Positions 168 to 47,861 of a stretch of 48,668 nt of DNA are shown here, piece by piece. The stretch comes from Nanobdellota archaeon (GTDB taxonomy: Archaea; Nanobdellota; Nanobdellia; Woesearchaeales; JAGWAF01): positions 1-48,668 of the forward strand of contig JBBSWF010000024.1 in assembly GCA_038046365.1 (NCBI GenBank), in the 5' to 3' direction. The notes under the pieces are model-generated. The model made no database searches and was not told where the DNA came from. It saw nothing but the letters and a program-made list of their open reading frames with translations. Each line of letters opens with the position of its first letter. Position 1 is the stretch's first letter. Made by a program: the position numbers and the translations under genes.

Positions 168-1322
168 TCATCTAACCATGGAAAGGATGGCCTTGAAAGA
201 ATCATCCGATAAGCTATCACTATACTCCTTGGCGAGTGAACCTGCCCTTTCTTCATCCAGCCTGATCCCCTTTGAAGCCAGTGAAAACCTAAGCAACCCT
301 GAAGAGAGGAACTGGCAGAACTGAGTCACATTGTGCGGCCGCTGCGTGAAGTGGGCGCGCTCAAAATCAATCATAACTGGCTTGTCGCCTTTAGCGATAA
401 GGATGTGCTTTATCGGGCGGGTCATCTCCTCTTTTGAGATGCCTATCTTGTCAAGCTTCCTGCATTGCTGGATCGCAGCCTTCAAGACTTTGAGGATCCT
501 TGGCTTAGATGATCTTTCGATAAAATCAAGAATCGGGATGCCATCTACGAACACATACGCGACGTATAAATCAGATGAATCAATGAACTTCGGGCCGATC
601 CCTTCTTTGCCGAGGCGCTTTAGCATCTCTGCCTCGTGGAGTATGGAAGCGATGGCCTGCGAGTCCGGGTTCTTGACCTTGATCGCGACTTTCTTGCCTT
701 TGAATCGGCTTGTGAAGACCATGCCTCTCTTGCCCTTGGCGAGGTAGGCTATGCTCTTGAATCCGTCACCTTCTAACCTCTTTCTTGCATCGGACATGAC
801 AAACCTGACGACAAGGAGATCCTCGAAGAAAACATGCTGGCGGTCCAGCTCCTTGAAATCGTATAAAAGCTGTCTTGCGCACTCTTCCACTTTCTCCGGT
901 CTAGTAAGGGATGAGTAGGACGCGATTATCTGGCCTTCCCTGGACAGGTGGTTGAGGGCTTGATGGAGGAACCTGCACATCGTCTCATAACCGTGCTTGC
1001 CTCCGACGAGCGCTTGATCGGTGAGGCCCTGCTCAGCTGGAAGGTAAGGCGGGTTGAAGATGATTGTGTCAAAGACACCTTTGACACTCGAGAAAAGATC
1101 GGAGACTTTGTAAGCGATCTTATCATGGGGATTGTTCTTCTTCGCATGATCTATAGCTTCTTTGTCGATGTCAGTAGCTAGGACGCTTGTGACTTTTGAA
1201 GAACCTGCTGCGGTGAATGCCTGGATTCCTGTCCCTGTGCCCATGTCAAGGACTTTGCCATACGCGAGAACCGCGACGTGCTTGGCAAGCAATGCAGAAT
1301 CCTCTTGGGGTTCGTAGACCAT
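168..1322 (-). CDS. Fusion protein: N-terminal SAM-dependent N-methyltransferase (HemK/PrmC/Mtq2-like, NPPY motif) plus C-terminal small protein-kinase-like domain
   Basis: 384-aa ORF. The N-half has LDMGTGTG (SAM motif I) and IFNPPY (amino/amide N-methyltransferase motif). The C-half has a kinase-like glycine loop plus Lys (AKGKRGMVF..GKKVAIKV) and VMIDFERA (DFG-like), but no HxD catalytic loop. Confidence 0.7.
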   Translation of the reverse strand: MVYEPQEDSALLAKHVAVLAYGKVLDMGTGTGIQAFTAAGSSKVTSVLATDIDKEAIDHAKKNNPHDKIAYKVSDLFSSVKGVFDTIIFNPPYLPAEQGLTDQALVGGKHGYETMCRFLHQALNHLSREGQIIASYSSLTRPEKVEECARQLLYDFKELDRQHVFFEDLLVVRFVMSDARKRLEGDGFKSIAYLAKGKRGMVFTSRFKGKKVAIKVKNPDSQAIASILHEAEMLKRLGKEGIGPKFIDSSDLYVAYVFVDGIPILDFIERSSKPRILKVLKAAIQQCRKLDKIGISKEEMTRPIKHILIAKGDKPVMIDFERAHFTQRPHNVTQFCQFLSSGLLRFSLASKGIRLDEERAGSLAKEYSDSLSDDSFKAILSMVR

Positions 1323-1387: not shown

Positions 1388-2701
1388 TCATCTCGGGCTA
1401 ACATACTTCTTCACAGCCATGACTTGGTGCTGCATGCCTCTGACGCTGAAGAGTCCCATGAACTCACGGACTACAGCCCAGACTGGCACTTCTCTTGGCC
1501 CCCTTCTCTCCGGGACACAAGCTAGGAAGAAAACGCTTGAGAACCTCAAGACCATAGAGATAGCAAAAACCAACGGAATGCCCGCCAATCCTATCAATGC
1601 GCCTTTGTCAGCGATGATACCTCCGATGATCGGACTGATGATGAGAGGGATAGCAGTAAGCGTCTGGTATTCTGCGACCTGGAACGGCCGGTCTTTGCGG
1701 TCGGTCATATCCAGCAGGAGATTGAAAGTCGTGAGCTCTACGCCTGCCCATACGATACCGGATATTATCTGGGCCGGGATTATCAGCCAGAGGTTCCCTG
1801 GGCCGATGAACAGGAACATGAGCGGGATTAGACCAGTGCCAAAGACGCAGAGCATCGCGATAGGCTTGTCACCATCGTGATCCGTCATTGGGCCGAATAT
1901 CGACTGAGAGAAGACCTTTGCTACGAACTGGATGGCGTTTGCAATTACATAAAGCGAGTAAGACATCGAGAGGTTGTTTAGCATGTATGCGGTGAAAAAC
2001 GGCGAAGAGATCATATAAGCGAAATTGAAAAATAAAGAGAACAAAAGCAGTTTGCCAAAATCCCCTTTCCAGCCTTTTGCGATGTCTTTGAGAGTATGCA
2101 CATCATGGCATTGATACGACGGCTCTTTGAGATTGCTCATGATCCAGGTAGCGAGAAGACCTAGGATGATCCCTAACGTGAATATTATCGCAAATCCCGC
2201 GTGCGAAGTCTTTGGGAATAAATCAAGAATAAACCCCCCAGTCAGGAAAGCTATCATCCCAAGCACTCCCACAAACACTAGGCGCTTGCTAAAGAAAGTC
2301 CCCCTATCCTTCTCTGGGACCACGTCTGCGGCAAGGCTTGTCCAGGCAGGATCAGAGAGGGACTCGCAGAACCGTGCAATAAAATAGAATACCATCACCC
2401 ATAACAGCGCATTCTCTTTGACTAGCAATGGCGCCCCAATTATCAGAAGCCACGTGAGCCTACCGATACTCGTGCTTGTGATATAGAGGACCCTCCTGCT
2501 AAACCTATGGATAAGAAGAACGCCAGGCATCTGAGACACGATCATACTGATATACGGTATCGCCCCAATAAGGCCAATAACGGTGTTTGACGCGCCAAGA
2601 TAAAGAGCGTAAGCTATCAGGAAGACCGTAGTGAGTCCATCATACATCGCCCAAAGGCCGCCATTGCCTAGCAGCACCTTCTGATTATGTGAGATGGCCA
2701 T
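1388..2701 (-). CDS. MFS-type transporter
   Basis: 437-aa ORF made almost entirely of hydrophobic helices arranged in two halves. A basic loop (HRFSRRVLY) follows the second helix, as in MFS motif A. ATG at 2701. Confidence 0.75.
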   Translation of the reverse strand: MAISHNQKVLLGNGGLWAMYDGLTTVFLIAYALYLGASNTVIGLIGAIPYISMIVSQMPGVLLIHRFSRRVLYITSTSIGRLTWLLIIGAPLLVKENALLWVMVFYFIARFCESLSDPAWTSLAADVVPEKDRGTFFSKRLVFVGVLGMIAFLTGGFILDLFPKTSHAGFAIIFTLGIILGLLATWIMSNLKEPSYQCHDVHTLKDIAKGWKGDFGKLLLFSLFFNFAYMISSPFFTAYMLNNLSMSYSLYVIANAIQFVAKVFSQSIFGPMTDHDGDKPIAMLCVFGTGLIPLMFLFIGPGNLWLIIPAQIISGIVWAGVELTTFNLLLDMTDRKDRPFQVAEYQTLTAIPLIISPIIGGIIADKGALIGLAGIPLVFAISMVLRFSSVFFLACVPERRGPREVPVWAVVREFMGLFSVRGMQHQVMAVKKYVSPR

Positions 2702-2766: not shown

Positions 2767-3846
2767 TCAATATAGGCCATTTGCCGCAAGCACAAACGCG
2801 ACTTTCGCGGCCTTTGGGATCTTGAGCTTGATCGCCGCAGCCAAAGTCGCGGCAGCGGCAGGATTGGCACCTATCCCCTCCTTCTCGGAGAGAGTCTTTC
2901 TCGCTCGAGCGATATCCATCTCGGAGACCGCTATCATACCCCCTTCACTTTCCTGGACAGACCTGATGGCAAGGTCGCCATCGATCGGGTAGCTGCATGA
3001 GATAGATTTTGGTGAATTCCTCGGGGTGACTCTCCTGATCGGTGAATCAGTGGCAAACGCCCTCACAATAGGGCAGCATCCCTCTGACTGGACACCTACA
3101 AGACGAGGCATATGATACAGAAGTCGCGCTGCGCAAAGATCCTTGCACCCCCTCCAGATCGAAGATATGAGCGAACCATCTCCCATAGGCGCGATGATGT
3201 AGTCAAGCTCGCCTAGCTGGTCGATGACCTCGAAAGCGACGCTCTTTTCGCCTTCACGACGGTAAGCGTAATTGCCTGCGAGGGGAATTTTCTCTTTGTT
3301 AGAGACTGCTTCAGCTTTGGCTGTGGCGGCTGAGCAATCGCCGCGCACGGTTTTGACGTCAGCGCCAAAACCCTCGATCTCACTGATAATCCCCTTTGCG
3401 GCAGTGATCGGGAGGATCACATCACAGTGGATGCCGACCCTGGCACAATAAGCGGCAAGAGACAGGCCTGAGTGACCGGAGCTTGCAATCACCACTCTCT
3501 TTGCATCTCGCTCTTTTAAGGCAGAGACTTCGATCGACGAGCCCCTGTCCTTGACGCTGCCTGTAGGATTGCTGCCTTCAATCTTGAAATGCCAGGATTG
3601 GCTTGAGACTGAATTGATAATCGGCGTGCCACCTTCTCCGAGGCTGACAATATCCTTGAATTGAGGGTAGAATTCTTTATACCTTAAGTGATTGAACGGT
3701 CTTTGGCGCAAAGACTTCCAACGGATGTTGAGACCTGGCCAATCGTATTGGACTAGGATGCTGCCACCGCAGCCGCACCTCTGCTGCGATGAATCCGGGC
3801 TATATCTGCAGCGACACCTTGAACATTGGAGATAAGATACTCGCAT
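2767..3846 (-). CDS. Threonine-synthase-family (fold-type II) PLP-dependent enzyme with N-terminal Cys4 zinc ribbon
   Basis: CSRCRCRY..CGCGG ribbon as in archaeal ThrC. NPTGSVKDRG matches the PLP-lysine motif (TGSFKDR), and ASSGHSG matches the phosphate-binding Gly loop. At 359 aa it is somewhat short for ThrC. Confidence 0.7.
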   Translation of the reverse strand: MRVSYLQCSRCRCRYSPDSSQQRCGCGGSILVQYDWPGLNIRWKSLRQRPFNHLRYKEFYPQFKDIVSLGEGGTPIINSVSSQSWHFKIEGSNPTGSVKDRGSSIEVSALKERDAKRVVIASSGHSGLSLAAYCARVGIHCDVILPITAAKGIISEIEGFGADVKTVRGDCSAATAKAEAVSNKEKIPLAGNYAYRREGEKSVAFEVIDQLGELDYIIAPMGDGSLISSIWRGCKDLCAARLLYHMPRLVGVQSEGCCPIVRAFATDSPIRRVTPRNSPKSISCSYPIDGDLAIRSVQESEGGMIAVSEMDIARARKTLSEKEGIGANPAAAATLAAAIKLKIPKAAKVAFVLAANGLY

Positions 3847-3915: not shown

Positions 3916-4623
3916 TCATTGAGCCATAACATGATCCGCAATGAGAAATCCTAGACCGTGATGTATTCTACCGTCATAGACCCCATTGACGTAATCCTCA
4001 AAAATGCCCCAGGGTTTGTGGTAAAGATAAGCTACCCTTTCAAGATCAAACATCAAGGGGCACGCTCGAAGAAACGCGAACTCCTTGAGCAAGTACCAGA
4101 CGCCCTCTTGGACCGCTGGCCCAATCCCGCCCGAATCCTTTAATTTGGGTTCAAGCACAGACCGGGTCTCACGACGAGCACTTTCGGAAAAATGTGGATT
4201 GGACCAGTATAACTCCTTGATCTCCCGGATGGCTTGTCCATAGATCGGATTTCCCTCAACATCTTGAGTCCATTCTATCACCGAGAACCGATCCTTGACA
4301 TGATCTTCGAGAGATCCTATCGCTCTCTTGCAATGGTTTTGGAGAGTGTTCCCATTTAATCTAGCTTTTTGTCTCGCTTTGTTCCCGGAATAACCCAACG
4401 CCTTATAGGTATGTTCAGCCGGCACATCCGGAACCATTACGATAGCTTGAGAAAACACTCTTGATGAGAACTTGATGAGGTCGCTTATCCGATCCTTATT
4501 GAAGTAGCTATTTCCAGGGCTCATACCTATCACGCAGATTCCGCTGTCTCTTACGATCTCATAGCCGACCCGAGCTGCGTTGCCTGTCCTTCCCTGTCTT
4601 ATGCACAAAACCATCTCAACCAC
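3916..4623 (-). CDS. Cyclodipeptide synthase (CDPS), NYH-type
   Basis: 235-aa ORF (GTG at 4623, first ATG at 4614). VIGMSPGNSYF matches AlbC GISAGNSYF (catalytic Ser37/Asn40). WYLLKE matches AlbC YVLAE (Tyr178/Glu182). YLYH matches AlbC CYH (Tyr202/His203). Length and overall collinearity are typical of CDPSs. Confidence 0.8.
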   Translation of the reverse strand: MVEMVLCIRQGRTGNAARVGYEIVRDSGICVIGMSPGNSYFNKDRISDLIKFSSRVFSQAIVMVPDVPAEHTYKALGYSGNKARQKARLNGNTLQNHCKRAIGSLEDHVKDRFSVIEWTQDVEGNPIYGQAIREIKELYWSNPHFSESARRETRSVLEPKLKDSGGIGPAVQEGVWYLLKEFAFLRACPLMFDLERVAYLYHKPWGIFEDYVNGVYDGRIHHGLGFLIADHVMAQ

Positions 4624-4729
4624 TTGCTATTCTTCAATCCTAATAGCTGATATCATTATAATAACTTTAATGATAAAAACTTAGAATAATGATAATATTT
4701 ATATATCTATATCAATCATTACGCTAACC

Positions 4730-5764
4730 ATGGACTCTAAAGACCTGAAGATCCTCAATATCCTGGCACAAAACTGCAGAATCGCAAACACCACTATCGC
4801 GACGGCGCTCCACATCTCCAAAGACACCGTAACATACCGGATCAGGCAACTCCAGTCACAAGGATATCTTAGGCAGTACATGCTTTTTGTGGACGCCAGG
4901 CGGCTAGGATTCACAAGGTACCACATACTCATACGATTCGACCCTGCCATTGAAGACAAAAAGAAAATCATCGAAAGGACAGCAAGGCACCCATTTGTCA
5001 TGTGGATAAACACCTTCATAGGGCGCTATGACGCCCAAATAATAGTCGATGCATCAAACGGCTTTCACCTCAACTCAATTCGGGAAGAGTTATTTAGAAC
5101 AGCAAAACACGGAATCCAGGAATACACTGTACTCACACACCTGCTCGACTTGGAATTTACTCAGCTTAGCCCAATCATTGATGTTGAAACGAGTTTCACA
5201 AGAAAGGACGATTCCTCTTTTAGCAAAAGCCTAACCACACGAAATTTTCCTGTCGGTGCTGACTTCGACAGATACCTCCCTTTAAGGGTAGAGAATGAGA
5301 TCCTGCGTCTTCTGGCGGACGATCCATGCAGCTCGCTTGTCGATATAGCATCCAAAGTCGGCACAGATAGACAGACAGTGAAGAAACATATACAAACCCT
5401 CATAAACCACAAAGTCATCCTGAATTTCGGCGGCATCACAGACCATTCAAAGTTCGGATTCATCACTTACTACCTTCTTGTCCGAATAACACAGGACACT
5501 CCATTACAGACACTAAAACAACCATTTGCATCGCTACATAACATATTCTATGCCGGACGCATGCTTGGGGACTATGACATGATCATTTACCTAAATGCCC
5601 GAAATCCTCAAGAGTTGAATGAAAGCATCGAGTTATTCAAATCAAAACTTGGCAAGCATATCCTACACTACGACCTTCTAGTCCAAGACCGAGTCCATCA
5701 CTGGAGACAGTATAGCGCCGGGATCCATGACCATCTGGTAAAATCCAAAGAAAATCAAGCGTAG
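4730..5764 (+). CDS. Tandem (duplicated) Lrp/AsnC-family transcriptional regulator
   Basis: 344 aa with two HTH_AsnC-like segments (LDSKDLKILNILAQNCR..; ENEILRLLADDPCSS..DIASKVG), each followed by a RAM-like region. Divergent from the CDPS gene across a 106-nt A/T-rich gap. Confidence 0.7.
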   Translation: MDSKDLKILNILAQNCRIANTTIATALHISKDTVTYRIRQLQSQGYLRQYMLFVDARRLGFTRYHILIRFDPAIEDKKKIIERTARHPFVMWINTFIGRYDAQIIVDASNGFHLNSIREELFRTAKHGIQEYTVLTHLLDLEFTQLSPIIDVETSFTRKDDSSFSKSLTTRNFPVGADFDRYLPLRVENEILRLLADDPCSSLVDIASKVGTDRQTVKKHIQTLINHKVILNFGGITDHSKFGFITYYLLVRITQDTPLQTLKQPFASLHNIFYAGRMLGDYDMIIYLNARNPQELNESIELFKSKLGKHILHYDLLVQDRVHHWRQYSAGIHDHLVKSKENQA

Positions 5765-5795: not shown

Positions 5796-6827
5796 TCATC
5801 TCCAGTAGACTTCGATCTGGTCGGTGCGCAGATAAGGCTTGATGTCGATCTTGTCTAAGGTGAGGGATATCGGCTGAGCTTTGTATTGAAGGATGCCAAG
5901 CCACGCGATCATCGCAGCATTGTCGACTAGGAATTGATTCTCTGGGGAGGCGAACTTGGCATTTCTCTCCTTGCACATGATCCCGCACATCTCTTGGAGA
6001 CGTTTATTGCAGGCGACGCCTCCACCTAGCAGGAGCTCTGATTTCCCGCAGTGGGCCATCGCGCGTTCAGAGACTTCTACAAGCATCGCGAAGACGGTTT
6101 CCTGGACAGAGAAGGCGAGATCAAAATCGTTTAATGTTCCCCCTTCGGTGGAACTTAAACGATTTTGGGTGTTAGACGATTTCATTGAGACAATCTTCTG
6201 TTTAAGGTTAGTGAAGAGGCCACCGAAAGTGACGTCCATCCCCTTGACGCTGTAGGGGAGATGGATGAGGTTTGTTCCATTGAGGGCCAGCTGCTCGACT
6301 TTCGGACCGCCGGGGAATCCTAATCCTAATTCTCGCGCGAAGGAATCGATAAAGTTGCCCACTCCGCCGTCGATGGACTCGCCGAAGACCCGATATTTCC
6401 CGCCGTCATAGGCGATGATCTGAGTGTTGGCGCCGGATGCATAGAGCATGACTGGGTCTTGCATGCCAGTGCGGAGACGGCCAATCTCAAGGTGGGCGAC
6501 ACAATGGTTGACTCCGATGACCGGGATCTTGTGGAGAACGTGAATAGACCTTGCTACGTCGCATCCTACCTTGAGGGCGTTGCCGATGCCTGGAGATTGG
6601 GAGTAAGAGATGATGTCGATATCTTTGATCTTGAGACCTGCTTTGTTCAATGCCTGATTGAGGATCCTTCCACAGACATCGACGTGATGCTCGCCCAACT
6701 TGAACGGAATGAGTCCGCCTTCCTCGGTGGTGTAGAGATCCTTCTCGTTGGCAAGGACGTTGCCTTTGTCGTCCATGATGGCGATGCCGAATGTGTGGGC
6801 AGTGGATTCTATGCCTAGGGAGAGCAT
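5796..6827 (-). CDS. kae1: tRNA N6-adenosine threonylcarbamoyltransferase Kae1 (stand-alone, not fused to Bud32)
   Basis: LGIESTAHTFGIAI N-terminus, metal-binding NHCVAHLE motif, and GGGVACN near the C-terminus. 343 aa. Confidence 0.9.
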   Translation of the reverse strand: MLSLGIESTAHTFGIAIMDDKGNVLANEKDLYTTEEGGLIPFKLGEHHVDVCGRILNQALNKAGLKIKDIDIISYSQSPGIGNALKVGCDVARSIHVLHKIPVIGVNHCVAHLEIGRLRTGMQDPVMLYASGANTQIIAYDGGKYRVFGESIDGGVGNFIDSFARELGLGFPGGPKVEQLALNGTNLIHLPYSVKGMDVTFGGLFTNLKQKIVSMKSSNTQNRLSSTEGGTLNDFDLAFSVQETVFAMLVEVSERAMAHCGKSELLLGGGVACNKRLQEMCGIMCKERNAKFASPENQFLVDNAAMIAWLGILQYKAQPISLTLDKIDIKPYLRTDQIEVYWR

Positions 6828-9179: not shown

Positions 9180-9392
9180 TTGCACCAATCTATGGAAATC
9201 AAAGTAATATTGGAACCTCAAGAAGAAGGCGGATTCACTGTATATGTCCCCTCTTTGCCGGGATGTGTCTCACAAGGAGAGACTAGAGCCGAAGCTCTGA
9301 AAAACATCAAAGAAGCCATCGAACTCCATCTGGAAGCCGATGATAACGAGCTTGTCCTTTACGAAGGCGAAGTCGCCAAGATAGCGGTATGA
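9180..9392 (+). CDS. hicB: HicB-family antitoxin (UPF0150-like)
   Basis: FTVYVPSLPGCVSQGETRAEALKNIKEAIELHLE motif. Probable ATG at 9192. Overlaps the next gene by ATGA. Confidence 0.8.
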   Translation: MHQSMEIKVILEPQEEGGFTVYVPSLPGCVSQGETRAEALKNIKEAIELHLEADDNELVLYEGEVAKIAV

Positions 9393-9607
9393 AACTCCCT
9401 CAGATCTCTGGAATCGACCTCATCAAGAAGCTGCGCGACCAGGGTTTTGTGGTCGTGAGACAGAAAGGGAGCCACATACGGCTAGAGAAAAACACTCCGG
9501 AAGGCGTGATAAAGATCACTGTGCCGAACCATCCTGTCTTGAAGAAAGGAACCCTTCACCACATACTCAAGGATGCGGGGGTAGATCCGGACACAATCTT
9601 CATGTGA
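9389..9607 (+). CDS. hicA: HicA-family toxin (mRNA interferase)
   Basis: 72 aa. The ISGIDLIKKLRDQGFVVVRQKGSHIRL core is typical of HicA/YcfA. Confidence 0.8.
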   Translation: MKLPQISGIDLIKKLRDQGFVVVRQKGSHIRLEKNTPEGVIKITVPNHPVLKKGTLHHILKDAGVDPDTIFM

Positions 9608-13789: not shown

Positions 13790-14182
13790 TTACCACTTCT
13801 CGACTGATAGGCCCGGGACATGCTTGAAGTGATCGATGTTGCGGGTGACTATAGTCGCGCCATGGCTGACGCATATGCCTGCGATGATGGTGTCAAAAGC
13901 GCCGATAGGGGTGCCTTTCTTGCGCAGAAAATTGTCAATCTCGATCTCCTGATGGACGCTGTCAAGGTCATATCCTATCGGGTCTAGAGCGTCAAAGAAT
14001 CTAAGAGCGTCTTTGAACTGCTTGCGGTTCTCCCGCGCCTTCGCCCCAGCAAGGACTTCCTGGGCATTGATTACAGTGGTCGAGAGCCGTTCGTTGTCAG
14101 CGGACAGTTCTTTGAGCTTTTTCACAGCGTCTTGGTTGTTCTTTAATATCGCGATTATCAAATCGCTATCAATAACTTTCAT
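13790..14182 (-). CDS. vapC: PIN-domain toxin VapC
   Basis: 130 aa. MKVIDSDLIIAIL N-terminus (first acidic residue) and FDTIIAGICVSHGATIVTRNIDHFKHVPGL C-terminal PIN signature. Confidence 0.8.
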   Translation of the reverse strand: MKVIDSDLIIAILKNNQDAVKKLKELSADNERLSTTVINAQEVLAGAKARENRKQFKDALRFFDALDPIGYDLDSVHQEIEIDNFLRKKGTPIGAFDTIIAGICVSHGATIVTRNIDHFKHVPGLSVEKW

Positions 14183-14427
14183 TGAATAGGCCTCTTCCTG
14201 CGCTTCTCCCAGTCAGCATCAAAGCGGCGCCGGTATTCCTTCATCGACGATTCCAGGCCTTTCTCCTCCTCTTTACTCATCTTCCACGCGCCGGCGAACT
14301 CCATCAGGTCCGGTTTTTTCTCATGGAGCAGCCTGACGAACATATCGGAGAAGCTCTCGTCAGCCGGTTTGGCCTTTGAGAGCTCTTTGTATACTCTATG
14401 TTTGATAGTGATGGTCTTGAACGACAT
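14179..14427 (-). CDS. vapB: VapB-like antitoxin
   Basis: The 82-aa product from ATG 14427 (MSFKTITIKHRVYKELSK...) overlaps vapC by 4 nt. The longer ORF to 14556 is a low-complexity extension. Confidence 0.6.
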   Translation of the reverse strand: MSFKTITIKHRVYKELSKAKPADESFSDMFVRLLHEKKPDLMEFAGAWKMSKEEEKGLESSMKEYRRRFDADWEKRRKRPIQ

Positions 14428-14554
14428 GATTATGTTTATGTTCAACATATACTTAAACTTTTGCCCCGGCCTCTCCAGAGAATGTCTTGCTCGCGGAGAG
14501 GATCTCGAAAGATTATTAAATAAGCTAGCATTATTTGAACTAAGGAGAACTAAC

Positions 14555-14788
14555 ATGACTCAAGCGCTCGTGCAACTCAGTGAGAATTCGAACAGGGTAT
14601 TGAACATCGTCAAAGCAAAGTATAACCTCAAAGACAAGTCGCAGGCAATAGAAGCGGTCATCCATCACTATATCGACTGCCAGGATGAGCCGGAACTGAG
14701 GCCTGAATTCGTGGCGAGGATATCCAAGGCTGAATCAGGCAGATTCGTCAAGGTCGCTGACTTCAGGAAGCGATACGGTGGGGATTGA
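14555..14788 (+). CDS. Small antitoxin-like protein (DUF2683-like) upstream of a RelE-like remnant
   Basis: 77 aa from ATG 14555 (MTQALVQLSENSNRVLNIVKAKYNLKDKSQAIEAVI..), preceded by AAGGAG. Its stop overlaps the ATG of the RelE-like frame (TGATG). Confidence 0.55.
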   Translation: MTQALVQLSENSNRVLNIVKAKYNLKDKSQAIEAVIHHYIDCQDEPELRPEFVARISKAESGRFVKVADFRKRYGGD

Positions 14789-15663: not shown

Positions 15664-18600
15664 TCACTCACGATGCATGGCCAGCGTCAACGCCTTCCCC
15701 TTTATCTTCTCTTCAGAGGACCATTCAGGCTTCTTTGCCGGGTCTTTGTCGTCGATGGTTAGGGAGGCGACTCCGCACTTCTCCTTGATCGTGTCGAGCC
15801 AGGCCTTTAGCGGGTCGCTTGACTCCTTGCCTGCCTTGATGTGGAGCGTGACCCTGTCCTTCCTCTGCAGACCGGCGGTCCTTCGGAGAGCCTGGATGCG
15901 GCGCGTGACCTCGCGAGAGAACCCTTCTGCTTCAAGCTCCGGCGTGGTGGTGGTATCAAGATAGGCGAGGCCTCCCTGGAATGACGCCTCTTTGAGGTGC
16001 GCAGGGACGATGCGGTTGATGAATACATGCTCTGGAACGAGATTGACCTCCTGGCCATCTATCTTGATGACCATCCTGCGGTCCTTCTGCATATGGCGGA
16101 CCACATCTTCAACGGAGTGCGTCACAATAGCTGCAATTACCTTCGGAGTGAGCTTGCCGAAATCCGATCCGATCTTGCCGGTGTCTGCCTTGACATCGAA
16201 CTTGATGCCTGGCATGGACTCCTGGATGCGGATCTCCTTGACATTGGCCTGGCGCCTGATCAGGTCGCCCAGCTTCTCGCAAGACTCGACGACCTTCTTG
16301 TCACTGGTGACCAAAGTGAGAGTCTTTAGAGGCCACCTCGTGTTGATGTTGGCCTTCTCCCTGGCGAAACTAGACGCGCCGACAGCCTGCATCGCTGTGG
16401 CCATACCCGCTTCGAGCTCGGAGTCACAGTCCTTGTCGTCCCACTTTGGCCAGGCGCAATGGTGTATGGATTCTTCCTTTAGCCCGAACGCCTTCTTCAA
16501 GTCCTGATAGATAGCTTCAGTGATAAAAGGAGCGACTGGAGCGAAGAGCTTGAGCGAGTTCATCAGGACCTGGTAAGTGACTGACGCGACGACTCTCTTA
16601 TCCTCATCATCTCCCGTGGCCGCCTTGTCACGGACAAGCTGGATATACGTCCGTGATAAGTCGAGGAACAACGAATCCGCTGCTCCAGGCACATCATTGA
16701 GCTGGTAGTTGTCAAAAGACCTGGTCGCGTGGCGCGTGGCCGAGTGCATCCTGGATATGATGAACCTCTCCTCTTCACCATAAAGCTTCACGAGCGACTT
16801 GTCTTCGAGGTCCTTGAGCTTGAGGTCGTTGTTCTCGCACATGTCTATTAGGAACTTATGCAGGTTCCAGAGGACCCCCAGGTTCTTCATCTGGATCTTG
16901 GCCTCGTCAGGACTGTAGATGAAGTCGTCGCCAGGAGTCCCGCTTATGAAATAGTACCTCAGAGTGTCAGCGCCATACTCATTTATCACGTCGTCAGGCT
17001 TGATTATGTTGCCTAAGGATTTCGACATCTTCCTGCCGAGAGCATCCTGCGCCCAGGCATGCATATACACTGCCTTGAAGCACGGCTTGCCAAACGCGAG
17101 GTTGGACGCGATGTGCATGAGATTGAACCAGCCTCTAATCTGGTCCTTGGCCTCGAGGATGAATTGGGCAGGCCAGAGCTCCTCGAATAAGTCCTTGCGA
17201 TTAGGGTAATCAAGGCAAGTCCAGGAATTGGTGCCTGCGTCGACCCAGACATCTAGCACGTCAGGAATCCTGCGCTGCTCCTTGCCGCACGGACACTTGA
17301 ACACTACATCGTCGATCCATGGCTTGTGCAGCTCTGGGACTTTCTTGCCAGCTGTTTTCTCCAGCTCGGCGATGGAACCGATGACCGTGACTTTCTTGCA
17401 TGAATCGCAGCGCCAGACCGGGAGAGGCGTGCCCCAGAATCTCTGCTTCGTGACTGAGTTGTCCCGAAGGTTCTTGAGCCAGGAATCGAACGCGTTGAAC
17501 GCCGTCTGCGGAACCCACTTGATCTGCTCATTTTGCTTGATCAGCTCTGGCTTTATGTCCTCGACTTTGAAGAACCATTGAGTCGTCGTCCTGAAAACAA
17601 CAGGGTTGTGGCAGCGCTGGCAGTGCGCATACTCGTGCTCGACAGGCGTCTGTTCGATTAGGTTGCCGCTCTTCTTGAGCTCTTCGATGAAAAGCCGGTC
17701 ATCTATCTTCGCGCGCATGCCCGCGAACCTTCCAGTGGTCTTGTCAAAGACACCGTGCTCATCGATCGCGTTGTAAGGGGGAACGTTGTTCTTGTGACCA
17801 ACCTCATAATCCTCAGGACCGCATCCTGGAGCCATGTGGACAAGCCCGCTTCCGGCGCTTGTGTCGACATATTCTTCTGAAAGAAGGACCGTGTGTACTT
17901 TCGGATGCTTCTTCTTTAGCTCGGCATAAACCTTGATATCCTTGTGCCAGGGGTGCTCGTACTCGATGCCTTCGAGCTTCTCCCCTTTCATCTCTTCAAG
18001 AATTTTGAGATCCTTGCCGACCACCATCTGTATGAACGGGCCAGCGAGCGCCTTTGCCACTATCCACTTCTCATCATCAACTTGGCACTTCACATAGTCT
18101 AATTCCGGGTTGACCATGATCCCCAGGTTGAAAGCGATAGTCCACGGCGTCGTGGTCCAAATAACCAAGAATTCACCCTTCTTCCCTTTGATCGGGAACT
18201 TGAGGAAGATGCTGTTCTCGGTGACGGTCTGGTAGTCAAGCTCATGCTTTGCGATAGCCGTGGCGCAAGAGGCGCACCAAGTCATTGTGCGCTCGCCTTC
18301 ATACAGACGGCCTTTCTCGTACGCTTTCTTGACAAGGAACCAGACTCCCTCGATGAACACCGGCTTGATGCTCTGATACGCGTTCTCGTGATCCATCCAG
18401 ACGCCTAATCTGTCGAGGTCCTTGATCATGATGTTCATATTGTCGATGCAGAGCTTCTCGCATTCCTTGACATACTTGTCGACTCCAAACTTGAGTATGT
18501 CCGGCTTGCCTTTGAGGCCGAGCTTCTTCTCCACAGCGTGCTCAGTCGGGATTCCGTGCATGTCGAAGCCTGCCCTGTCCCAGACATCAAAACCCTGCAT

Positions 18601-18810
18601 CCGTTTGTACCTGATGAACAGGTCCTTGAGCGACTTGTTCCAGGCATGGCCTATGTGGATCCTTCCGCTGGTATACGGCGGGCCGTCGAGGAAATAGAAC
18701 TTCTTGGCTCCCCTGACCTTCTCTTTAGCCTTGGGATAACATCTGTGCTCCTTCCAGAACGACAAGACCTCTAATTCGTAGACTTTAGGGTCGAATTGCG
18801 CGACTTCCAT
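15664..18810 (-). CDS. ileS: Isoleucyl-tRNA synthetase
   Basis: HIGHAWN (HIGH) and KMSKS motifs, CP1 editing region and Zn-binding Cys pairs. True start is ATG 18810 (MEVAQFDPKVYE), about 20-30 nt after a TTTATAAA box. The ORF track extends it spuriously to 19197. Confidence 0.95.
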   Translation of the reverse strand: MEVAQFDPKVYELEVLSFWKEHRCYPKAKEKVRGAKKFYFLDGPPYTSGRIHIGHAWNKSLKDLFIRYKRMQGFDVWDRAGFDMHGIPTEHAVEKKLGLKGKPDILKFGVDKYVKECEKLCIDNMNIMIKDLDRLGVWMDHENAYQSIKPVFIEGVWFLVKKAYEKGRLYEGERTMTWCASCATAIAKHELDYQTVTENSIFLKFPIKGKKGEFLVIWTTTPWTIAFNLGIMVNPELDYVKCQVDDEKWIVAKALAGPFIQMVVGKDLKILEEMKGEKLEGIEYEHPWHKDIKVYAELKKKHPKVHTVLLSEEYVDTSAGSGLVHMAPGCGPEDYEVGHKNNVPPYNAIDEHGVFDKTTGRFAGMRAKIDDRLFIEELKKSGNLIEQTPVEHEYAHCQRCHNPVVFRTTTQWFFKVEDIKPELIKQNEQIKWVPQTAFNAFDSWLKNLRDNSVTKQRFWGTPLPVWRCDSCKKVTVIGSIAELEKTAGKKVPELHKPWIDDVVFKCPCGKEQRRIPDVLDVWVDAGTNSWTCLDYPNRKDLFEELWPAQFILEAKDQIRGWFNLMHIASNLAFGKPCFKAVYMHAWAQDALGRKMSKSLGNIIKPDDVINEYGADTLRYYFISGTPGDDFIYSPDEAKIQMKNLGVLWNLHKFLIDMCENNDLKLKDLEDKSLVKLYGEEERFIISRMHSATRHATRSFDNYQLNDVPGAADSLFLDLSRTYIQLVRDKAATGDDEDKRVVASVTYQVLMNSLKLFAPVAPFITEAIYQDLKKAFGLKEESIHHCAWPKWDDKDCDSELEAGMATAMQAVGASSFAREKANINTRWPLKTLTLVTSDKKVVESCEKLGDLIRRQANVKEIRIQESMPGIKFDVKADTGKIGSDFGKLTPKVIAAIVTHSVEDVVRHMQKDRRMVIKIDGQEVNLVPEHVFINRIVPAHLKEASFQGGLAYLDTTTTPELEAEGFSREVTRRIQALRRTAGLQRKDRVTLHIKAGKESSDPLKAWLDTIKEKCGVASLTIDDKDPAKKPEWSSEEKIKGKALTLAMHRE

Positions 18811-18991
18811 GACGAGATGAATCGGGAAACTGTTTATAAATGTTTGGCGTCGGCGTCTCGGCCGCTGATGCGGCCAATCCGGGCCAGGGCAAGGCCTTCG
18901 GCAGTGCGGGAGGGGAAACGGTCCTGGGTACAGTGTTTGGTTGAATCGGAGCTCCATAAGGATTATAAGATGGGGATGCGCAGAGGTCGAT

Positions 18992-19465
18992 ATGCCTGAA
19001 TCACTTAAGATGGGAACTCGTGCCTGGATCGCATTGATCGCATGCTTGTTGCTGAGCGCGCCGGCGGCAGAGGCAATATTGATACAGCCCGCCACTGCCA
19101 AAGGAATTGGCGGAGCTTTGACATCTTCGCTGCTCGCTGGATCAAAGAATATAAAGAAGGCCGCAAGCGAGATGAAACCAATCACGCCGGCAATCACTCA
19201 GAAGAAACCACTATATTATACGACGGCAAAGAACACCAACCCTCCTGGCTGGATATCAGGAAAACTGAAAATTGACGCCAAACCATCATCGGAACAGACA
19301 TTGACACAGGAACGGCTCACCAAGAGCAATATAAAGACACAGAATAAGATAGCCAAAGTCATCGCGAGAGAAAGACCGATCATCATTTCGACACGGGCCT
19401 CTTACGCATCGATTAGCGGGTCGTTCACTTCAGGCGGATTCGGCGGCAGCGTGAAGATGGGATAA
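18992..19465 (+). CDS. Small secreted/membrane-associated hypothetical protein
   Basis: Signal-peptide-like MGTRAWIALIACLLLSAPAAEA (ATG 18992 or 19010). Lys/Thr/Ser-rich mature part with a Gly-rich C-terminus. Confidence 0.4.
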   Translation: MPESLKMGTRAWIALIACLLLSAPAAEAILIQPATAKGIGGALTSSLLAGSKNIKKAASEMKPITPAITQKKPLYYTTAKNTNPPGWISGKLKIDAKPSSEQTLTQERLTKSNIKTQNKIAKVIARERPIIISTRASYASISGSFTSGGFGGSVKMG

Positions 19466-28513: not shown

Positions 28514-29632
28514 CTATGGGTTTATGGGTATGATCTTCCCATCATGGACGATCTTCATCTGGAAAGGCATCTGGACCATCGAATCCTGGTATCTGATGCC
28601 GCGGATCGCTTTGTTATGGTTGTTCACCTGGTCGATAAAATCCCCTTTGTCCAGAGCACCGGCCTTGATCGACTCGTAGAGCGCAGCGGAGAGTTCATAG
28701 CCAAGCGCATGGTAAAGATTCGGGGTCATGTTGTAGTCTTCCATGATACGCGCTGAGAACTCTGCATCATAATCGTCTTTGATCTGGCCGCCGGCATAAA
28801 CTCCTTCCATGATATCCTTGAATTGATTGGCATAACCTTCTTCCAGGTCCATGCCGAAAATGATCGTGATCCCCGGATCCTGCTCCTTGAGGATCTTGAT
28901 CATACTGGTGCTCACTTGGATGTCCGGTATGATGACGTAAACCACATCAGGCTTGGTGGATGTCACCTTTGTGGCATAGGTGTAGAGGACTTTATCACCT
29001 TTCAGATCTAGCTTGTCGATCCCGAGAATAGTCTGATTGTGTTCGGCAGCTGCTCGCTTGATATTATCTTCCATTTGCTGGCCTAGCGCTGACTGCTCGG
29101 TGATCAGGTAACCGGTGTGTCTCCCGATACTTTGCGCAAAGCTCACCTCCTGATCGGCTTGTTGAGACAGAGACGGATAGCTGCATACCACGTTCGTGTA
29201 ATTCCTGAACTCATCGGTGCATAAAGTGATTGCCGCGACAAATGAGGCGTTCTTATCTTCATCACTCATCGCCCCCTCAATCGCGATTGTGGCTGCCGGT
29301 CCTAGCGGTCCGACGAAAGCTCTGACACCATCGATATCACGCAACTTCCTGTAGGATGTAAGGGAGCCCTTAGAATCCCATCTATCATCCTCATAGATCA
29401 CTTTAACCTCGGGATGGGTCTTAGCAAAGACCTCCACTCCCTGCTTGATCTCCTCGCCCAATCTGCTCAGGTCGCCGGAAAGCGGCCCGATGAAACCAAT
29501 AGTGACGCCGGCATGGGCAGACTGCGTTGCTTTGCCATCGATACCGGGGCTGCTGCATGAAGACAACAACAGCGTGATGATTAAAATCGCGGCCACGACG
29601 TCTTTTGCCTTAACTTGGGTGTGCAGTTCCAT
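28514..29632 (-). CDS. Type-1 periplasmic-binding-protein-fold solute-binding protein (LivJ/branched-chain amino-acid-like), lipobox-like signal
   Basis: Signal sequence with AAILIITLLLSSCSS, then GFIGPLSGDLSRLGEE, typical of Leu/Ile/Val-binding SBPs. No ABC permease or ATPase gene is nearby. Start 29632 or 29659. Confidence 0.7.
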   Translation of the reverse strand: MELHTQVKAKDVVAAILIITLLLSSCSSPGIDGKATQSAHAGVTIGFIGPLSGDLSRLGEEIKQGVEVFAKTHPEVKVIYEDDRWDSKGSLTSYRKLRDIDGVRAFVGPLGPAATIAIEGAMSDEDKNASFVAAITLCTDEFRNYTNVVCSYPSLSQQADQEVSFAQSIGRHTGYLITEQSALGQQMEDNIKRAAAEHNQTILGIDKLDLKGDKVLYTYATKVTSTKPDVVYVIIPDIQVSTSMIKILKEQDPGITIIFGMDLEEGYANQFKDIMEGVYAGGQIKDDYDAEFSARIMEDYNMTPNLYHALGYELSAALYESIKAGALDKGDFIDQVNNHNKAIRGIRYQDSMVQMPFQMKIVHDGKIIPINP

Positions 29633-29728
29633 CTTGAATACACAAATCGATGCCTTCATAAGAAACAACGCTTCACTTTTTCGAATAAACACGCCAACTT
29701 TTTAAATAAATGACTACTTTGTTCGGTC

Positions 29729-30820
29729 ATGTCTGAAAACTCCGATGATGGATGGACTATCTTCCTGCCGAAGGAAAGGAGAGAGGTGGAGCTCGATAAG
29801 AAAGACCTCCTGATCATGCAGACCCTGAGCGAGAATTGCAGGACAACCTTGCCTGTGATGAGGCGTATAGTGGGCTTATCAAAGAGCAGCATACTCAACC
29901 GGATAGAAAGACTTGAACGGATAGGGGTCATAAGAGGATATTCAACGATCGTCAACATACATCGACTCGGTCTGAGGATGTTCAGCGTGTTGATCTCATC
30001 TAATATGACTTTGAATGAGAAGATTGAGTTCGGCAGATCATGCGAAAAGATTCCATCCCTGAACCAAGTCCTGACCTTCCAGACCGGGCCATGGGATCTC
30101 ATGCTCCGACTCTATGCGAAGGACAATCGGTATCTTGATCACATCCTGACCCAGATCACGGCGAAGGGAAAAATAGCAGACCTGGAGATACTTGAACTCG
30201 ATGACTGGTTCTTCCTTCCTATAAATTATCTGCAGGTAGAGACGCATCTGGACAATCACTGCACAAAATCTGACACTTCTTTCCAGCATATACTGCGCAA
30301 GAGGAAACCGGTGCTTGATCCGCGCCATGACATAAAAGACATCCGGATCCTGGGCGTATTGGCCAAGAATCCGAGGATCAGCCTCAGCCATCTGGGAGAG
30401 AAGGCTGGAATGTCCGCAGACGCGGTCAAGGATCGCATCGCCAGGCTCGCAGACCAAGGGATCATAGGCCACTTCTTCGCAAACCTGGACCCCTATATGC
30501 TCGGACTGAGCGGATATGTCTTGTTCGTGCAAGTCTTTGATAGGTCACGGATGAAACAGATGATCGAATTCCTGATGCGGCAGCCTCAAATGCAAGGTGG
30601 CGTGCTGAAATATACTGGAGCCTGGAACCTACAGGCTTTCCTTGTAGTAAAAGACGTCATGGACCTTCGGGCTTTTGAGGAGAATTTCATCTCGCATTTT
30701 GGTGGTAGCATCCATAAGTATCTCATCGCACAGCTGGCTGAGCAGACGTACTACTCACTATTCCCGGCTGAGATACAGAAAGTGGCGGAAGAGTCAATCT
30801 CTGAGCATGCTCCTCGATGA
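29729..30820 (+). CDS. Tandem (duplicated) Lrp/AsnC-family transcriptional regulator, paralogue of 4730..5764
   Basis: 363 aa with two HTH_AsnC-like segments (LDKKDLLIMQTLSENCR..; DIKDIRILGVLAKNPRISLSHLGEKAG), each followed by a RAM-like region. Confidence 0.7.
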   Translation: MSENSDDGWTIFLPKERREVELDKKDLLIMQTLSENCRTTLPVMRRIVGLSKSSILNRIERLERIGVIRGYSTIVNIHRLGLRMFSVLISSNMTLNEKIEFGRSCEKIPSLNQVLTFQTGPWDLMLRLYAKDNRYLDHILTQITAKGKIADLEILELDDWFFLPINYLQVETHLDNHCTKSDTSFQHILRKRKPVLDPRHDIKDIRILGVLAKNPRISLSHLGEKAGMSADAVKDRIARLADQGIIGHFFANLDPYMLGLSGYVLFVQVFDRSRMKQMIEFLMRQPQMQGGVLKYTGAWNLQAFLVVKDVMDLRAFEENFISHFGGSIHKYLIAQLAEQTYYSLFPAEIQKVAEESISEHAPR

Positions 30821-34183: not shown

Positions 34184-34885
34184 GTGATTATGATGTGGAA
34201 CTACTTCCCAAAAGCAGCGCCTCGACCTAAACCAGTCCAGGGCAAGGAACGCATGAAATTCGGGACGACCTGGTGGGGCAAGAAGTGGGTCGAAGCTGTC
34301 GAGGGGATAGGAGATCAACAGCGCATGTCACGCGGCAGAGCGTACGCACGGGCGAACCGGGCCTTCAACATAGATATAAAAGAAGGGAATGTGACCGCAA
34401 AGGTGGAAGGGTCGCATGGGGACTACAAGGTGTCGATGCGATTCTCGAAGATCGACGGGGACGATAAGGATAGACTATTATCCTCGCTTGTCGCCCAGCC
34501 AGAACTTCTCGGCGCGATTCTCAATAATGAAGTGCCTGATAATCTCGAAGACGCATCAAAGGTGGACTTGATACCGACGGAATTCGACTCGAAATGTTCA
34601 TGCCCAGACTACGAGAACCCCTGCAAACATATCGCCGCGGTTTTCTATGCCCTAGCAGCCGAGATTGATGCGGCTCCGCAAATACTCCTCAAGATCCGTG
34701 GAGTGGATAAGAATGACATCTTGAACGTAGCGACAGGGACGCTCGAGGCCGGTATCGATCATCCGAGCACCGTGAAAAAAGCGCGCAAATCCAAACAGAG
34801 CCGGCCAGCCAAACCGACTAAGAAAAGACCTATTAAGAAGGCGGCCACCTCACTAAAGAAGCCGGGAAAAACCAGACGAGAATAG
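34184..34885 (+). CDS. SWIM zinc-finger protein (partner of SNF2 helicase)
   Basis: FGTTWWGKKWVEAV..RMSRGRAYAR N-terminus and CSCPDYENPCKHIAAVFY (CxCxnCxH SWIM motif). Basic C-terminal tail. Confidence 0.8.
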   Translation: MIMMWNYFPKAAPRPKPVQGKERMKFGTTWWGKKWVEAVEGIGDQQRMSRGRAYARANRAFNIDIKEGNVTAKVEGSHGDYKVSMRFSKIDGDDKDRLLSSLVAQPELLGAILNNEVPDNLEDASKVDLIPTEFDSKCSCPDYENPCKHIAAVFYALAAEIDAAPQILLKIRGVDKNDILNVATGTLEAGIDHPSTVKKARKSKQSRPAKPTKKRPIKKAATSLKKPGKTRRE

Positions 34886-34888
34886 ATT

Positions 34889-47379: not shown

Positions 47380-47861
47380 ACGATAATACTGGGGTGGATG
47401 AGGATAAAACCGGGAATCAATCGCCGCCTGCCGAGGACAGCTTCCCAGACGGAGTCCCTTTCGAGAACAGGCTGATGTACACAGAGATACTCCTCGATTA
47501 TTACCGCAATCCTCGCTGCTTCGGCACAATCGAGAATTACCATGTGCACGCACGGGACACGAACCCCTCTTGCGGGGATGTCATCGAATTCTTCGCACGC
47601 GTGAACCGCGACAAGGTCATCACTGAGATAAAATTCACTGGAAAGGGATGCGCCATATCACAAGCAGCGGCATCCATGCTGGCAGAGGCGATGATGGGCA
47701 AGAATATAAATGAAATCGTCAAACTCGACAAGAAACAGATGCTTGAGATGGTAGGCATCCCGATCTCCATGATGCGGATGAAGTGCGCATTGCTTGGGAT
47801 GAAGGTGCTCAAGGTCGGAGTGTACCAGTATCTTGGGAAGGAGATGGAAGAGGGAGACTGA
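47376..47861 (+). CDS. sufU: SufU (IscU/NifU-N-like sulfur acceptor)
   Basis: LDYYRNPRCFG, NPSCGDVIE, GKGCAISQAAASM and KCALLG motifs. 4-nt overlap with sufD-sufS. Confidence 0.85.
   Translation: MNDNTGVDEDKTGNQSPPAEDSFPDGVPFENRLMYTEILLDYYRNPRCFGTIENYHVHARDTNPSCGDVIEFFARVNRDKVITEIKFTGKGCAISQAAASMLAEAMMGKNINEIVKLDKKQMLEMVGIPISMMRMKCALLGMKVLKVGVYQYLGKEMEEGD

Follow-up and report, generated by a model that had tools for sequence, protein, structure and literature searches.

The 48,668-nucleotide stretch of DNA considered here (contig JBBSWF010000024.1, hereafter referred to as the window) raises the question of whether an archaeon carries a working cyclodipeptide synthase (CDPS), and of what such an enzyme might be coupled to in its genome. 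The gene at issue is located on the minus strand, where its open frame reaches a GTG codon at position 4623 (3916..4623, 235 aa), and a preliminary description of the same DNA had interpreted it as a CDPS of the so-called NYH subfamily in an archaeal genome context. The analysis presented here indicates that the coding sequence (3916..4614) is likely to represent a catalytically competent NYH CDPS of a Woesearchaeota-like DPANN archaeon, which forms a module with an adjacent gene for a tandem Lrp/AsnC protein. The placement among DPANN archaea, the two-gene module with its divergent promoter, the lack of conserved tailoring or export genes and a P1 substrate pocket common to the whole clade are what this analysis adds to the preliminary description.

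With regard to the extent of the gene, translation probably starts at the ATG at position 4614, which gives a minus-strand coding sequence of 232 aa (3916..4614, based on the open reading frame list, the profile matches and the structural model). This start is preferred because a homologue with 77% identity, P0002, begins with MVLCIT, comparable to MVLCIR in the window protein; the start picked by gene callers is a TTG at position 4608 (230 aa, P0001). Residue numbers given throughout are those of the 235-aa form.

Profile searches place the product well within the CDPS family, as had been proposed. The match to the Pfam family PF16715 scored 109.2 bits against a curated cut-off of 27 (E = 3e-31) and spans profile positions 15-216 of 220, i.e., the whole domain, while the NCBIfam model TIGR04539 returned 127.8 bits against a cut-off of 45 (E = 4e-37). 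Furthermore, a sequence search of the PDB returned CDPSs only among its matches, including YvmC (E = 8e-11), Shae-CDPS (2e-10), BtCDPS (1e-9), AlbC (5e-9) and Rv2275 (3e-7). An AlphaFold2 model built with 37 homologues (predicted local distance difference test score, pLDDT, of 97.1; predicted template modelling score of 0.92) exhibits a single Rossmann-type domain with the fold of the solved CDPSs, which is related to the catalytic domains of class-Ic aminoacyl-tRNA synthetases. When this model was compared to the PDB using Foldseek, the hits ranked 1-49 were all CDPSs and the first aminoacyl-tRNA synthetase appeared at rank 50. The best matches exhibited template modelling (TM) scores of 0.77-0.86 (YvmC 0.79-0.86, BtCDPS 0.82 and AlbC 4q24 0.78), and Rv2275 was likewise matched at ~0.8. 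Helix 80-103 of the window CDPS contains six Lys/Arg residues according to sequence and model, and presumably occupies the place of the tRNA-binding basic helix of AlbC.

The catalytic residues can be read directly from the DNA on the minus strand. The stretch G-M-S-P-G-N-S-Y-F (residues 33-41; 4501..4527) holds the catalytic Ser35 and Asn38, the stretch Y-L-L-K-E (residues 177-181; 4081..4095) holds Tyr177 and Glu181, and the pair Tyr201/His202 (4018..4023) represents the 'YH' of NYH. The AlbC segments paired with these motifs are GISAGNSYF, YVLAE and YH, and the HMMER alignment to AlbC (PDB 3oqv) equates Ser35 with Ser37, Asn38 with Asn40, Tyr177 with Tyr178, Glu181 with Glu182, Tyr201 with Tyr202 and His202 with His203; the AlbC residues and motifs cited in the preliminary description are thus confirmed. 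These six residues are invariant in an alignment of 37 relatives, and in a wider set the six positions read SNYEYH in 47 of the 48 sequences, the divergent protein of locus L073 being the exception. The NYH subfamily is defined by the N-Y-H triad at AlbC positions Asn40, Tyr202 and His203 (PMC11610984), and as N38, Y201 and H202 are present in the alignments to AlbC and to both sets of relatives, the window CDPS is assigned to this subfamily, in agreement with the earlier claim. Among the checks and counter-criteria that the preliminary description had named were a profile search, the predicted fold and the alignment of the catalytic Ser, Tyr, Glu and Tyr. All three lend its identification support: the profile scores lie well above the cut-offs, the fold is that of YvmC, BtCDPS, AlbC and Rv2275 with synthetase relatives ranked lower, and the catalytic positions coincide with those of AlbC, while none of the outcomes that it had named as speaking against a CDPS (no significant profile match, another fold or non-coincident catalytic positions) was encountered. 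Membership of the CDPS family, and of its NYH subfamily, is accordingly close to certain. The gene is a further member of a known enzyme family, from a clade that is visible to automated annotation yet uncharacterized.

The window CDPS is likely to be an active enzyme that produces a cyclodipeptide. By analogy with AlbC, Rv2275 and YvmC, the aminoacyl moiety of a first aminoacyl-tRNA would initially be transferred to Ser35, with its side chain accommodated in pocket P1; a second aminoacyl-tRNA would then contribute its aminoacyl moiety via pocket P2 to yield a dipeptidyl-enzyme, and intramolecular cyclization aided by Tyr201 would release a 2,5-diketopiperazine.

The archaeal genome context claimed for this gene holds up against the markers in the window. 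The arch_KAE1 equivalog model scored 401 bits (cut-off 375) on a stand-alone Kae1 (5796..6827), and other archaeal markers include a HemK2/Mtq2 of archaeal type (hemK_rel_arch), a family-B DNA polymerase, TrmB and Lrp-type regulators. The named best matches of Kae1 (~63% identity) are assigned to 'Candidatus Woesearchaeota', 'Nanoarchaeia', 'Nanoarchaeota' and 'Nanoarchaeales', and the best matches of the tandem Lrp/AsnC protein (57-63% identity) carry the same names of Woesearchaeota/Nanoarchaeota type. These best matches, rather than a phylogeny, suggest that the window belongs to the Woesearchaeota-type DPANN archaea. An identical contig is deposited at ENA (ERZ1292621, 'Hain_H52_02um_R3_318'), and the name of this record points to groundwater and a 0.2-µm fraction.

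An HMMER scan of 1.84 billion representative sequences returned 511 clusters at E <= 1e-3, with 280 at <= 1e-10 and 58 at <= 1e-30. Among species-representative genomes, the closest CDPS loci (40-46% identity) are those of archaeal metagenome-assembled genomes (MAGs) labelled Woesearchaeota, Micrarchaeota, 'archaeon' and, in one case, Methanosarcinales. The next relatives, at 35-42% identity, are found in bacteria of the candidate phyla radiation (CPR)/Patescibacteria (Saccharibacteria, Paceibacteria, Kerfeldbacteria and others), followed by Obscuribacterales and Bdellovibrionota. The gene is therefore common in Woesearchaeota-type DPANN genomes and not a one-off, so that the preliminary description of archaeal CDPSs as rare does not apply within this group, while their description as uncharacterized stands within the searchable literature. 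In a census published in 2018, the NYH CDPSs were distributed among Actinobacteria (72%), Firmicutes (19%) and Proteobacteria (8.5%); archaea are absent from its main text, and its supplementary list contains a single 'uncultured archaeon' entry, which belongs to another group, together with four CPR members of the clade of the window CDPS, without activity data (PMC5816076). No description of the clade was found in the searchable literature on CDPSs in archaea, DPANN, CPR or Woesearchaeota or on CDPSs with AsnC, and CDPSs are absent from Mukai 2017, although a review refers to that paper for their numbers. Nearly all CDPS studies so far have concerned Actinobacteria, Firmicutes and Proteobacteria. 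The NYH enzyme encoded in the window is intact and stems from a DPANN archaeon.

The sole conserved neighbour of the CDPS gene is a divergently transcribed gene on the plus strand (4730..5764), encoding the 344-aa tandem Lrp/AsnC protein. Pfam detects an AsnC-type helix-turn-helix (HTH) and a RAM domain (AsnC_trans_reg) twice each in this protein, which places it in the Lrp/AsnC family, and its AlphaFold2 model (pLDDT 95.6) consists of two HTH+RAM units joined by a confidently modelled 40-residue linker. In the alignment of its homologues, the linker is strongly conserved and both HTH motifs are retained. PDB sequence matches of the protein are PH1519, PH0061 and LrpA, and each half superposes on archaeal and bacterial structures of Lrp/feast-famine regulatory proteins (FFRPs), some of them solved with DNA, with a TM score of ~0.8 at 20-24% identity. 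The archaeal Lrp/AsnC regulators FL11/PH1519, PH0061, LrpA and PH0140 likewise consist of one HTH and one RAM domain, and bind amino acids and DNA, with PDB entries containing Lys, Ile, Leu or Gln; the window protein differs in that two complete units are fused in a single 344-aa chain with an ordered and conserved linker.

The pairing of the two genes was evaluated from both sides. Starting from the CDPS, a tandem Lrp/AsnC gene was found to adjoin it divergently in all five testable archaeal loci (L002, L003, L005, L006 and L007), i.e., those archaeal genome loci, found via the CDPS, for which the upstream side was available. Across these loci the tandem Lrp/AsnC protein is 60-63% identical as compared to 40-46% for the CDPS, and the partner is thus the more conserved of the two. 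For the reverse test, ten tandem Lrp/AsnC homologues were selected solely because they are located on long contigs, and seven of these (L066, L068, L071, L072, L073, L075 and L076) possess a Pfam-recognizable CDPS gene divergently upstream. At two other loci, both Woesearchaeota and without a CDPS at this position, the slot opposite the tandem Lrp/AsnC gene holds a hydrophobic protein of 120-130 aa (L065, 3543..3905, and L074, 2000..2392, both minus strand); these two proteins are 50% identical to each other, and no homologue was found in the window or in any of the other loci. In L070, a 1.26-Mb contig, the divergent gene encodes a major facilitator superfamily (MFS) transporter. The tandem Lrp/AsnC gene thus seems to represent a fixed anchor with a swappable target gene. 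The genes flanking the CDPS/Lrp pair vary by locus and are mainly of a housekeeping nature, and no description of the pairing was found in the searchable literature.

Of note, the window also encodes a second tandem Lrp/AsnC paralogue (29729..30820, plus strand, 363 aa), which is 26% identical to the product of 4730..5764 and is divergent from a gene for a Peripla_BP_6 (Leu/Ile/Val-type) binding protein (28514..29692, minus strand). A layout in which a tandem Lrp protein faces an amino-acid-related gene is therefore present twice in the window, and the arrangement of the paralogue fits an amino-acid-related regulon.

The two divergent genes share an AT-rich intergenic region of 115 bp (4615..4729), which was compared across 11 archaeal loci in which the corresponding region measures 78-115 bp. 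On the CDPS side, a block with the clade consensus TTTATTATA[A/T]TGT is located 34-50 bp from the CDPS start in the 11 loci, and in the window it corresponds to a TATA-like box, TTATTATAAT (4655..4664, minus strand), ~40 bp upstream of the CDPS ATG, as a candidate promoter element. On the opposite side, a block TATATAAAT is situated 21-24 bp from the tandem Lrp/AsnC ATG in most loci, and the corresponding putative TATA-like box in the window, ATTTATATA (4697..4705, plus strand), lies 25 bp upstream of the ATG. In 8 of the 11 loci, a distance of 41-44 bp separates the two boxes. Judged from their sequence, the two conserved blocks may represent back-to-back archaeal TATA boxes, and the box-to-ATG spacing on the Lrp/AsnC side would imply a leaderless mRNA. 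An inverted repeat in the window, TATCATTAAA-N5-TATAATGATA, overlaps the CDPS TATA-like box and is not conserved across loci. In the proposed model, the tandem Lrp/AsnC protein would bind this shared 115-bp promoter region and, depending on an amino acid or a similar small ligand, would gate transcription of both the CDPS gene and its own gene. On balance, a role of this protein as transcriptional regulator of the CDPS is favoured, with less assurance than is attached to the activity of the enzyme.

The substrates of the enzyme were approached through the pocket positions defined on AlbC, i.e., 33-35-65-67-119-185-186-200 for P1 and 152-155-156-159-204-206-207 for P2 (PMC5816076). Via the AlbC alignment, the window P1 reads VGMPWFLY (V31, G33, M63, P65, W118, F184, L185 and Y199) and P2 reads ESVPKWG (E152, S155, V156, P159, K203, W205 and G206). 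When applied to CPR relatives, the same extraction reproduces the published motifs, e.g., VGLAWFLY/TAVGKWT, thereby validating the pocket mapping. Throughout the archaeal and CPR members of the clade, P1 conforms to [IV]G[MLF][AP]WF[LMI]Y, while in P2 only V156 and W205 are retained, and an archaeal homologue such as that of L002 is of the IGMAWFLY/TAVGDWE type; the first substrate is therefore probably common to the clade, and the second may differ within it. Judged from the P1 motif, a hydrophobic residue, an aromatic one or proline is most likely part of the product, and it is probably an unmodified cyclodipeptide since no tailoring gene is conserved beside the CDPS.

Any one specific product would, however, be a doubtful call. 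Three characterized NYH enzymes are identical to the window CDPS at five of the eight P1 positions, namely CDPS 84 (LGLPWFLF, product cFI), CDPS 83 (VGLPWFFF, product cPR) and CDPS 100 (CGHPWLLY, product cPP), while Nvec-CDPS2 (LGFPWYIF/ERVKRWP), which makes cWL and cWF, has E152, V156 and W205 of P2 in common with it. These four enzymes exhibit similar motifs and differing products, and none is closely related to the window CDPS; according to the source paper of the characterized motifs, such motifs are unreliable predictors without phylogenetic proximity. A product call from P1 and P2 was therefore rejected, the likeness to Pro-, Phe/Ile- and Trp-accepting enzymes being equal (5/8). None of the published specificity groups (Gondry 2018) fits the window CDPS in both P1/P2 consensus and phylogenetic proximity. 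No characterized enzyme is related closely enough to the window CDPS for its product to be assigned, in line with the statement in the preliminary description that the specificity cannot be read by eye. The JGI label 'cyclo(L-tyrosyl-L-tyrosyl) synthase' carried by several relatives is contradicted by the NF052540 score (58.9 bits against a cut-off of 300), and the published cYY motifs of the Rv2275 group, VG[IV]TMLFN and L..[FY]..QLP, differ from VGMPWFLY and ESVPKWG.

Comparison with known systems places the window CDPS apart from its best-studied relatives. The best solved matches, YvmC (the cyclo-Leu-Leu synthase of Bacillus; 3oqh) and BtCDPS (6ztu), exhibit the same NYH residues and, with TM scores of 0.79-0.86, the same fold, and have the stretch Y-H-[K/R]-P-W following the catalytic Tyr-His in common with the window protein, yet they are only ~19-25% identical to it and derive from bacterial hosts. 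At P1 positions 65, 67 and 119, YvmC has L, A and T or F, as compared to M, P and W in the window. Bacillus CDPS genes adjoin a gene for a P450 (CypX) involved in pulcherriminic acid formation, unlike the window locus, where no CypX-type P450 partner is present. AlbC (Streptomyces noursei, cyclo-Phe-Leu; 3oqv/4q24) similarly represents an NYH enzyme with all six catalytic equivalents and a TM score of 0.78, but it is ~20% identical to the window CDPS, its P1 reads LGVVLLFL against VGMPWFLY, and its cyclodipeptide oxidase genes (AlbA/B) have no equivalent in the window. ParcuCDPS (Parcubacteria RAAC4_OD1_1, cyclo-His-Pro; 7qb8) is a characterized enzyme from a likewise ultra-small and uncultured lineage, and differs in belonging to the XYP subfamily, in its P1 (GAYAWELY) and in its low TM scores of 0.56-0.61 to the window CDPS.

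The nearest bacterial counterparts are those of CPR bacteria, including the Kerfeldbacteria protein OGY85379.1 and the Moranbacteria protein OGI43181.1 (PMC5816076, Data Sheet 4), which belong to the same clade, are listed there among the unassigned 'NYH CDPSs' and have no recorded product. The CPR loci of this clade encode CDPSs that are 35-42% identical to that of the window, and their pockets (VGLAWFLY/TAVGKWT and IGFAWFLY/TGVGKWE) are nearly like VGMPWFLY/ESVPKWG. However, the CPR proteins are mostly fusions to an SBP_bac_3 domain, named for solute-binding proteins (SBPs), and their loci lack a tandem Lrp/AsnC gene, whereas the window CDPS is stand-alone and paired. Proteins of 450-510 aa are encoded by 26 of the 38 bacterial-type CDPS loci, a set that includes the Woesearchaeota-labelled MAG L055, and the C-terminal half of these long proteins is an SBP_bac_3 domain. 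Such fusions were observed at L016 (5019..6458), L055 (3081..4517), L011 (5971..7404) and ~23 other bacterial loci (CPR, Obscuribacterales and others). Neither a signal peptide nor a membrane segment can be seen in these fusions, and the domain is hence taken to be cytoplasmic; its closest solved relatives are ancestral amino-acid-binding proteins (AncCDT-1), cyclohexadienyl dehydratase and amino-acid SBPs. The C-terminal domain of the CPR fusions had been named 'ABC transporter-domain' in an earlier study (Gondry 2018; PMC5816076). It is suggestive that in bacteria and archaea alike a module of the amino-acid-binding type accompanies this CDPS clade, as a fused domain in the former and as an Lrp-type neighbour in the latter, and the regulatory hypothesis is put forward on the basis of this parallel.

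A bolder extension of this hypothesis, which is considered unlikely, holds that this NYH clade produces a signal according to amino-acid status in ultra-small microbes of the DPANN and CPR groups that depend on a host. The switch of the synthase would be a dedicated sensor made of two fused Lrp/AsnC units in DPANN archaea, and in CPR bacteria the fused SBP-type amino-acid-binding domain would exert allosteric control. The unmodified cyclodipeptide would not be a precursor of an antibiotic but would diffuse to the host or community as a message. If true, no tRNA-dependent pathway to a peptide natural product would have been established in Archaea before this one; if the product is an ordinary cyclodipeptide without a signalling role, the finding is a routine extension of a known family.

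Several observations weigh against the reading of the locus as a competent CDPS regulated by its divergent neighbour. The identity of the window CDPS to any characterized CDPS is ~20-25%, and specificity is therefore not transferable from those enzymes; three of the ten tandem Lrp/AsnC homologues face other genes, and the regulator is thus not exclusive to CDPSs; no palindromic operator between the TATA-like boxes is consistent across the 11 loci; promoter elements by themselves would lead one to expect part of the block conservation in such AT-rich intergenic DNA; and the best and sole full-length structural match of the partner is an enzyme, NirDL (4ch7, E = 6e-15). As NirDL and AhbAB are enzymes of the Lrp/AsnC fold, this last match lends some weight to the idea that the neighbour is a ligand-binding or enzymatic partner, which acts on or sequesters the cyclodipeptide, and not a transcription factor. 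Its unusual conservation (60-63%, beside ~45% for the CDPS) points in the same direction, as do 45 positions without variation, a large share of which are polar, within the first RAM domain and the 40-residue linker (pLDDT above 90). The NirDL match is, however, poor (TM 0.57-0.62, root-mean-square deviation 9.5 A, 12% identity), and the PDB contains no fused tandem of this fold other than NirDL, while the separate halves fit DNA-binding FFRPs much better (TM ~0.8, 20-24% identity). An assignment of the partner as AhbAB/NirDL siroheme decarboxylase is also unsupported by the AhbA (36.3 bits against a cut-off of 140) and AhbB (39.5 against 125) profiles. Furthermore, both HTH motifs are conserved, and the gene is divergent from the CDPS over a conserved promoter region, an arrangement typical of autoregulated Lrp-type regulators. 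An enzymatic or sequestering partner is consequently regarded as improbable. Less probable by far is a recently transferred or decaying CDPS passenger from CPR bacteria without a role in the archaeon. It is true that CPR bacteria of the same habitats are the closest non-archaeal relatives, that L055, a MAG labelled 'Woesearchaeota', has a CDPS of the bacterial fusion type and groups within the CPR sequences in a neighbour-joining sketch (midpoint-rooted, without support values and of use for coarse grouping only), and that the GC content at third codon positions of the CDPS (0.50) and tandem Lrp/AsnC (0.52) genes is the lowest among 14 genes sampled (others 0.56-0.70). Against this, the frame is intact and the catalytic residues invariant, an identical CDPS protein is found on five contigs, and the Lrp/AsnC-linked archaeal CDPSs are deeply diverged (45-77% identity), fall apart from the bacterial cluster in the same tree and, across many genomes, have remained paired with a regulator of archaeal type and with TATA-like promoters of archaeal type, which leaves the passenger scenario hardly tenable.

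The genes downstream of the CDPS offer a different explanation, namely that it forms the core of a small biosynthetic cluster. Directly downstream on the same strand lies a gene for a ThrC-like pyridoxal phosphate (PLP) enzyme with an N-terminal Cys4 zinc-ribbon (2767..3846, minus strand), followed by an MFS transporter (1388..2701, minus strand), with gaps of 69 bp between CDPS and PLP enzyme and 65 bp between PLP enzyme and transporter; the former would supply or modify the substrate or the diketopiperazine, and the latter would export the product. None of the NCBIfam threonine-synthase cut-offs is reached by the PLP enzyme (at best 204 bits against 303), which thus need not be a housekeeping ThrC, and CDPS clusters often include transporters. 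However, when 75 related loci were searched by tblastn with both proteins, neither had a homologue beside any other CDPS or tandem Lrp/AsnC gene of the clade, the neighbours elsewhere being unrelated housekeeping genes (pseudouridine synthase, thioredoxin, G3P dehydrogenase and hydrolase), and a conserved gene cluster with these two genes was thus rejected. The 384-aa methyltransferase fusion encoded downstream of the transporter (168..1322, minus strand) does not recur near related CDPSs, and in the bacterial CDPS loci no other conserved neighbour, and hence no tailoring or export cluster, was found. A biosynthetic cluster is accordingly very unlikely. The same absence of conserved tailoring or export genes would suit a protein of CDPS fold with a non-canonical task, i.e., transfer of the aminoacyl moiety from tRNA to another acceptor, or a 'feast/famine' response to amino acids in which certain aminoacyl-tRNAs are drained or sensed, with any diketopiperazine as a by-product. 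Secondary metabolism is unexpected in a reduced-genome host, and the coupling to amino-acid-sensor-type modules (Lrp/AsnC in archaea, fused SBP_bac_3 in CPR bacteria) would also agree with such a task. Nevertheless, all residues needed to catalyse the two-step ping-pong reaction and the cyclization are invariant, Tyr201 and His202 included, both pockets are present, and no sequence feature sets the protein apart from active CDPSs; a non-canonical role is thus given little credence, although slightly more than the cluster, and a canonical CDPS paired with a tandem Lrp/AsnC regulator remains the preferred reading.

The remainder of the window contains a number of further features. The methyltransferase fusion at 168..1322 combines an N-terminal archaeal HemK2/Mtq2-type methyltransferase (TIGR00537, 103 bits) with a C-terminal region of ~200 aa that exhibits a kinase-like glycine loop and Lys motif (KGKRGMVF...VAIKV), and may represent an Mtq2-Bud32 fusion, as Kae1 is stand-alone. 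Two toxin-antitoxin pairs are present, i.e., HicB/HicA (9180..9607, plus strand) and VapB/VapC of the PIN type (13790..14556, minus strand), while an isoleucyl-tRNA synthetase of 1177 aa (15664..19197, minus strand) carries an N-terminal extension of ~130 aa ahead of the catalytic domain, with its profile match starting at residue 133. A SWIM zinc-finger protein followed directly by an SNF2-family helicase with DUF3670 is encoded at 34184..37123 (plus strand). Finally, the 870-aa SufB (42369..44981, plus strand) is split by an intein with a LAGLIDADG homing endonuclease (Hint_2, LAGLIDADG_3 and Intein_splicing), and is followed by a 797-aa fusion (44986..47379, plus strand) of a SufD-type SUFBD core to a class-V aminotransferase, i.e., a SufS-like cysteine desulfurase, and by a NifU-like scaffold at 47376..47861.

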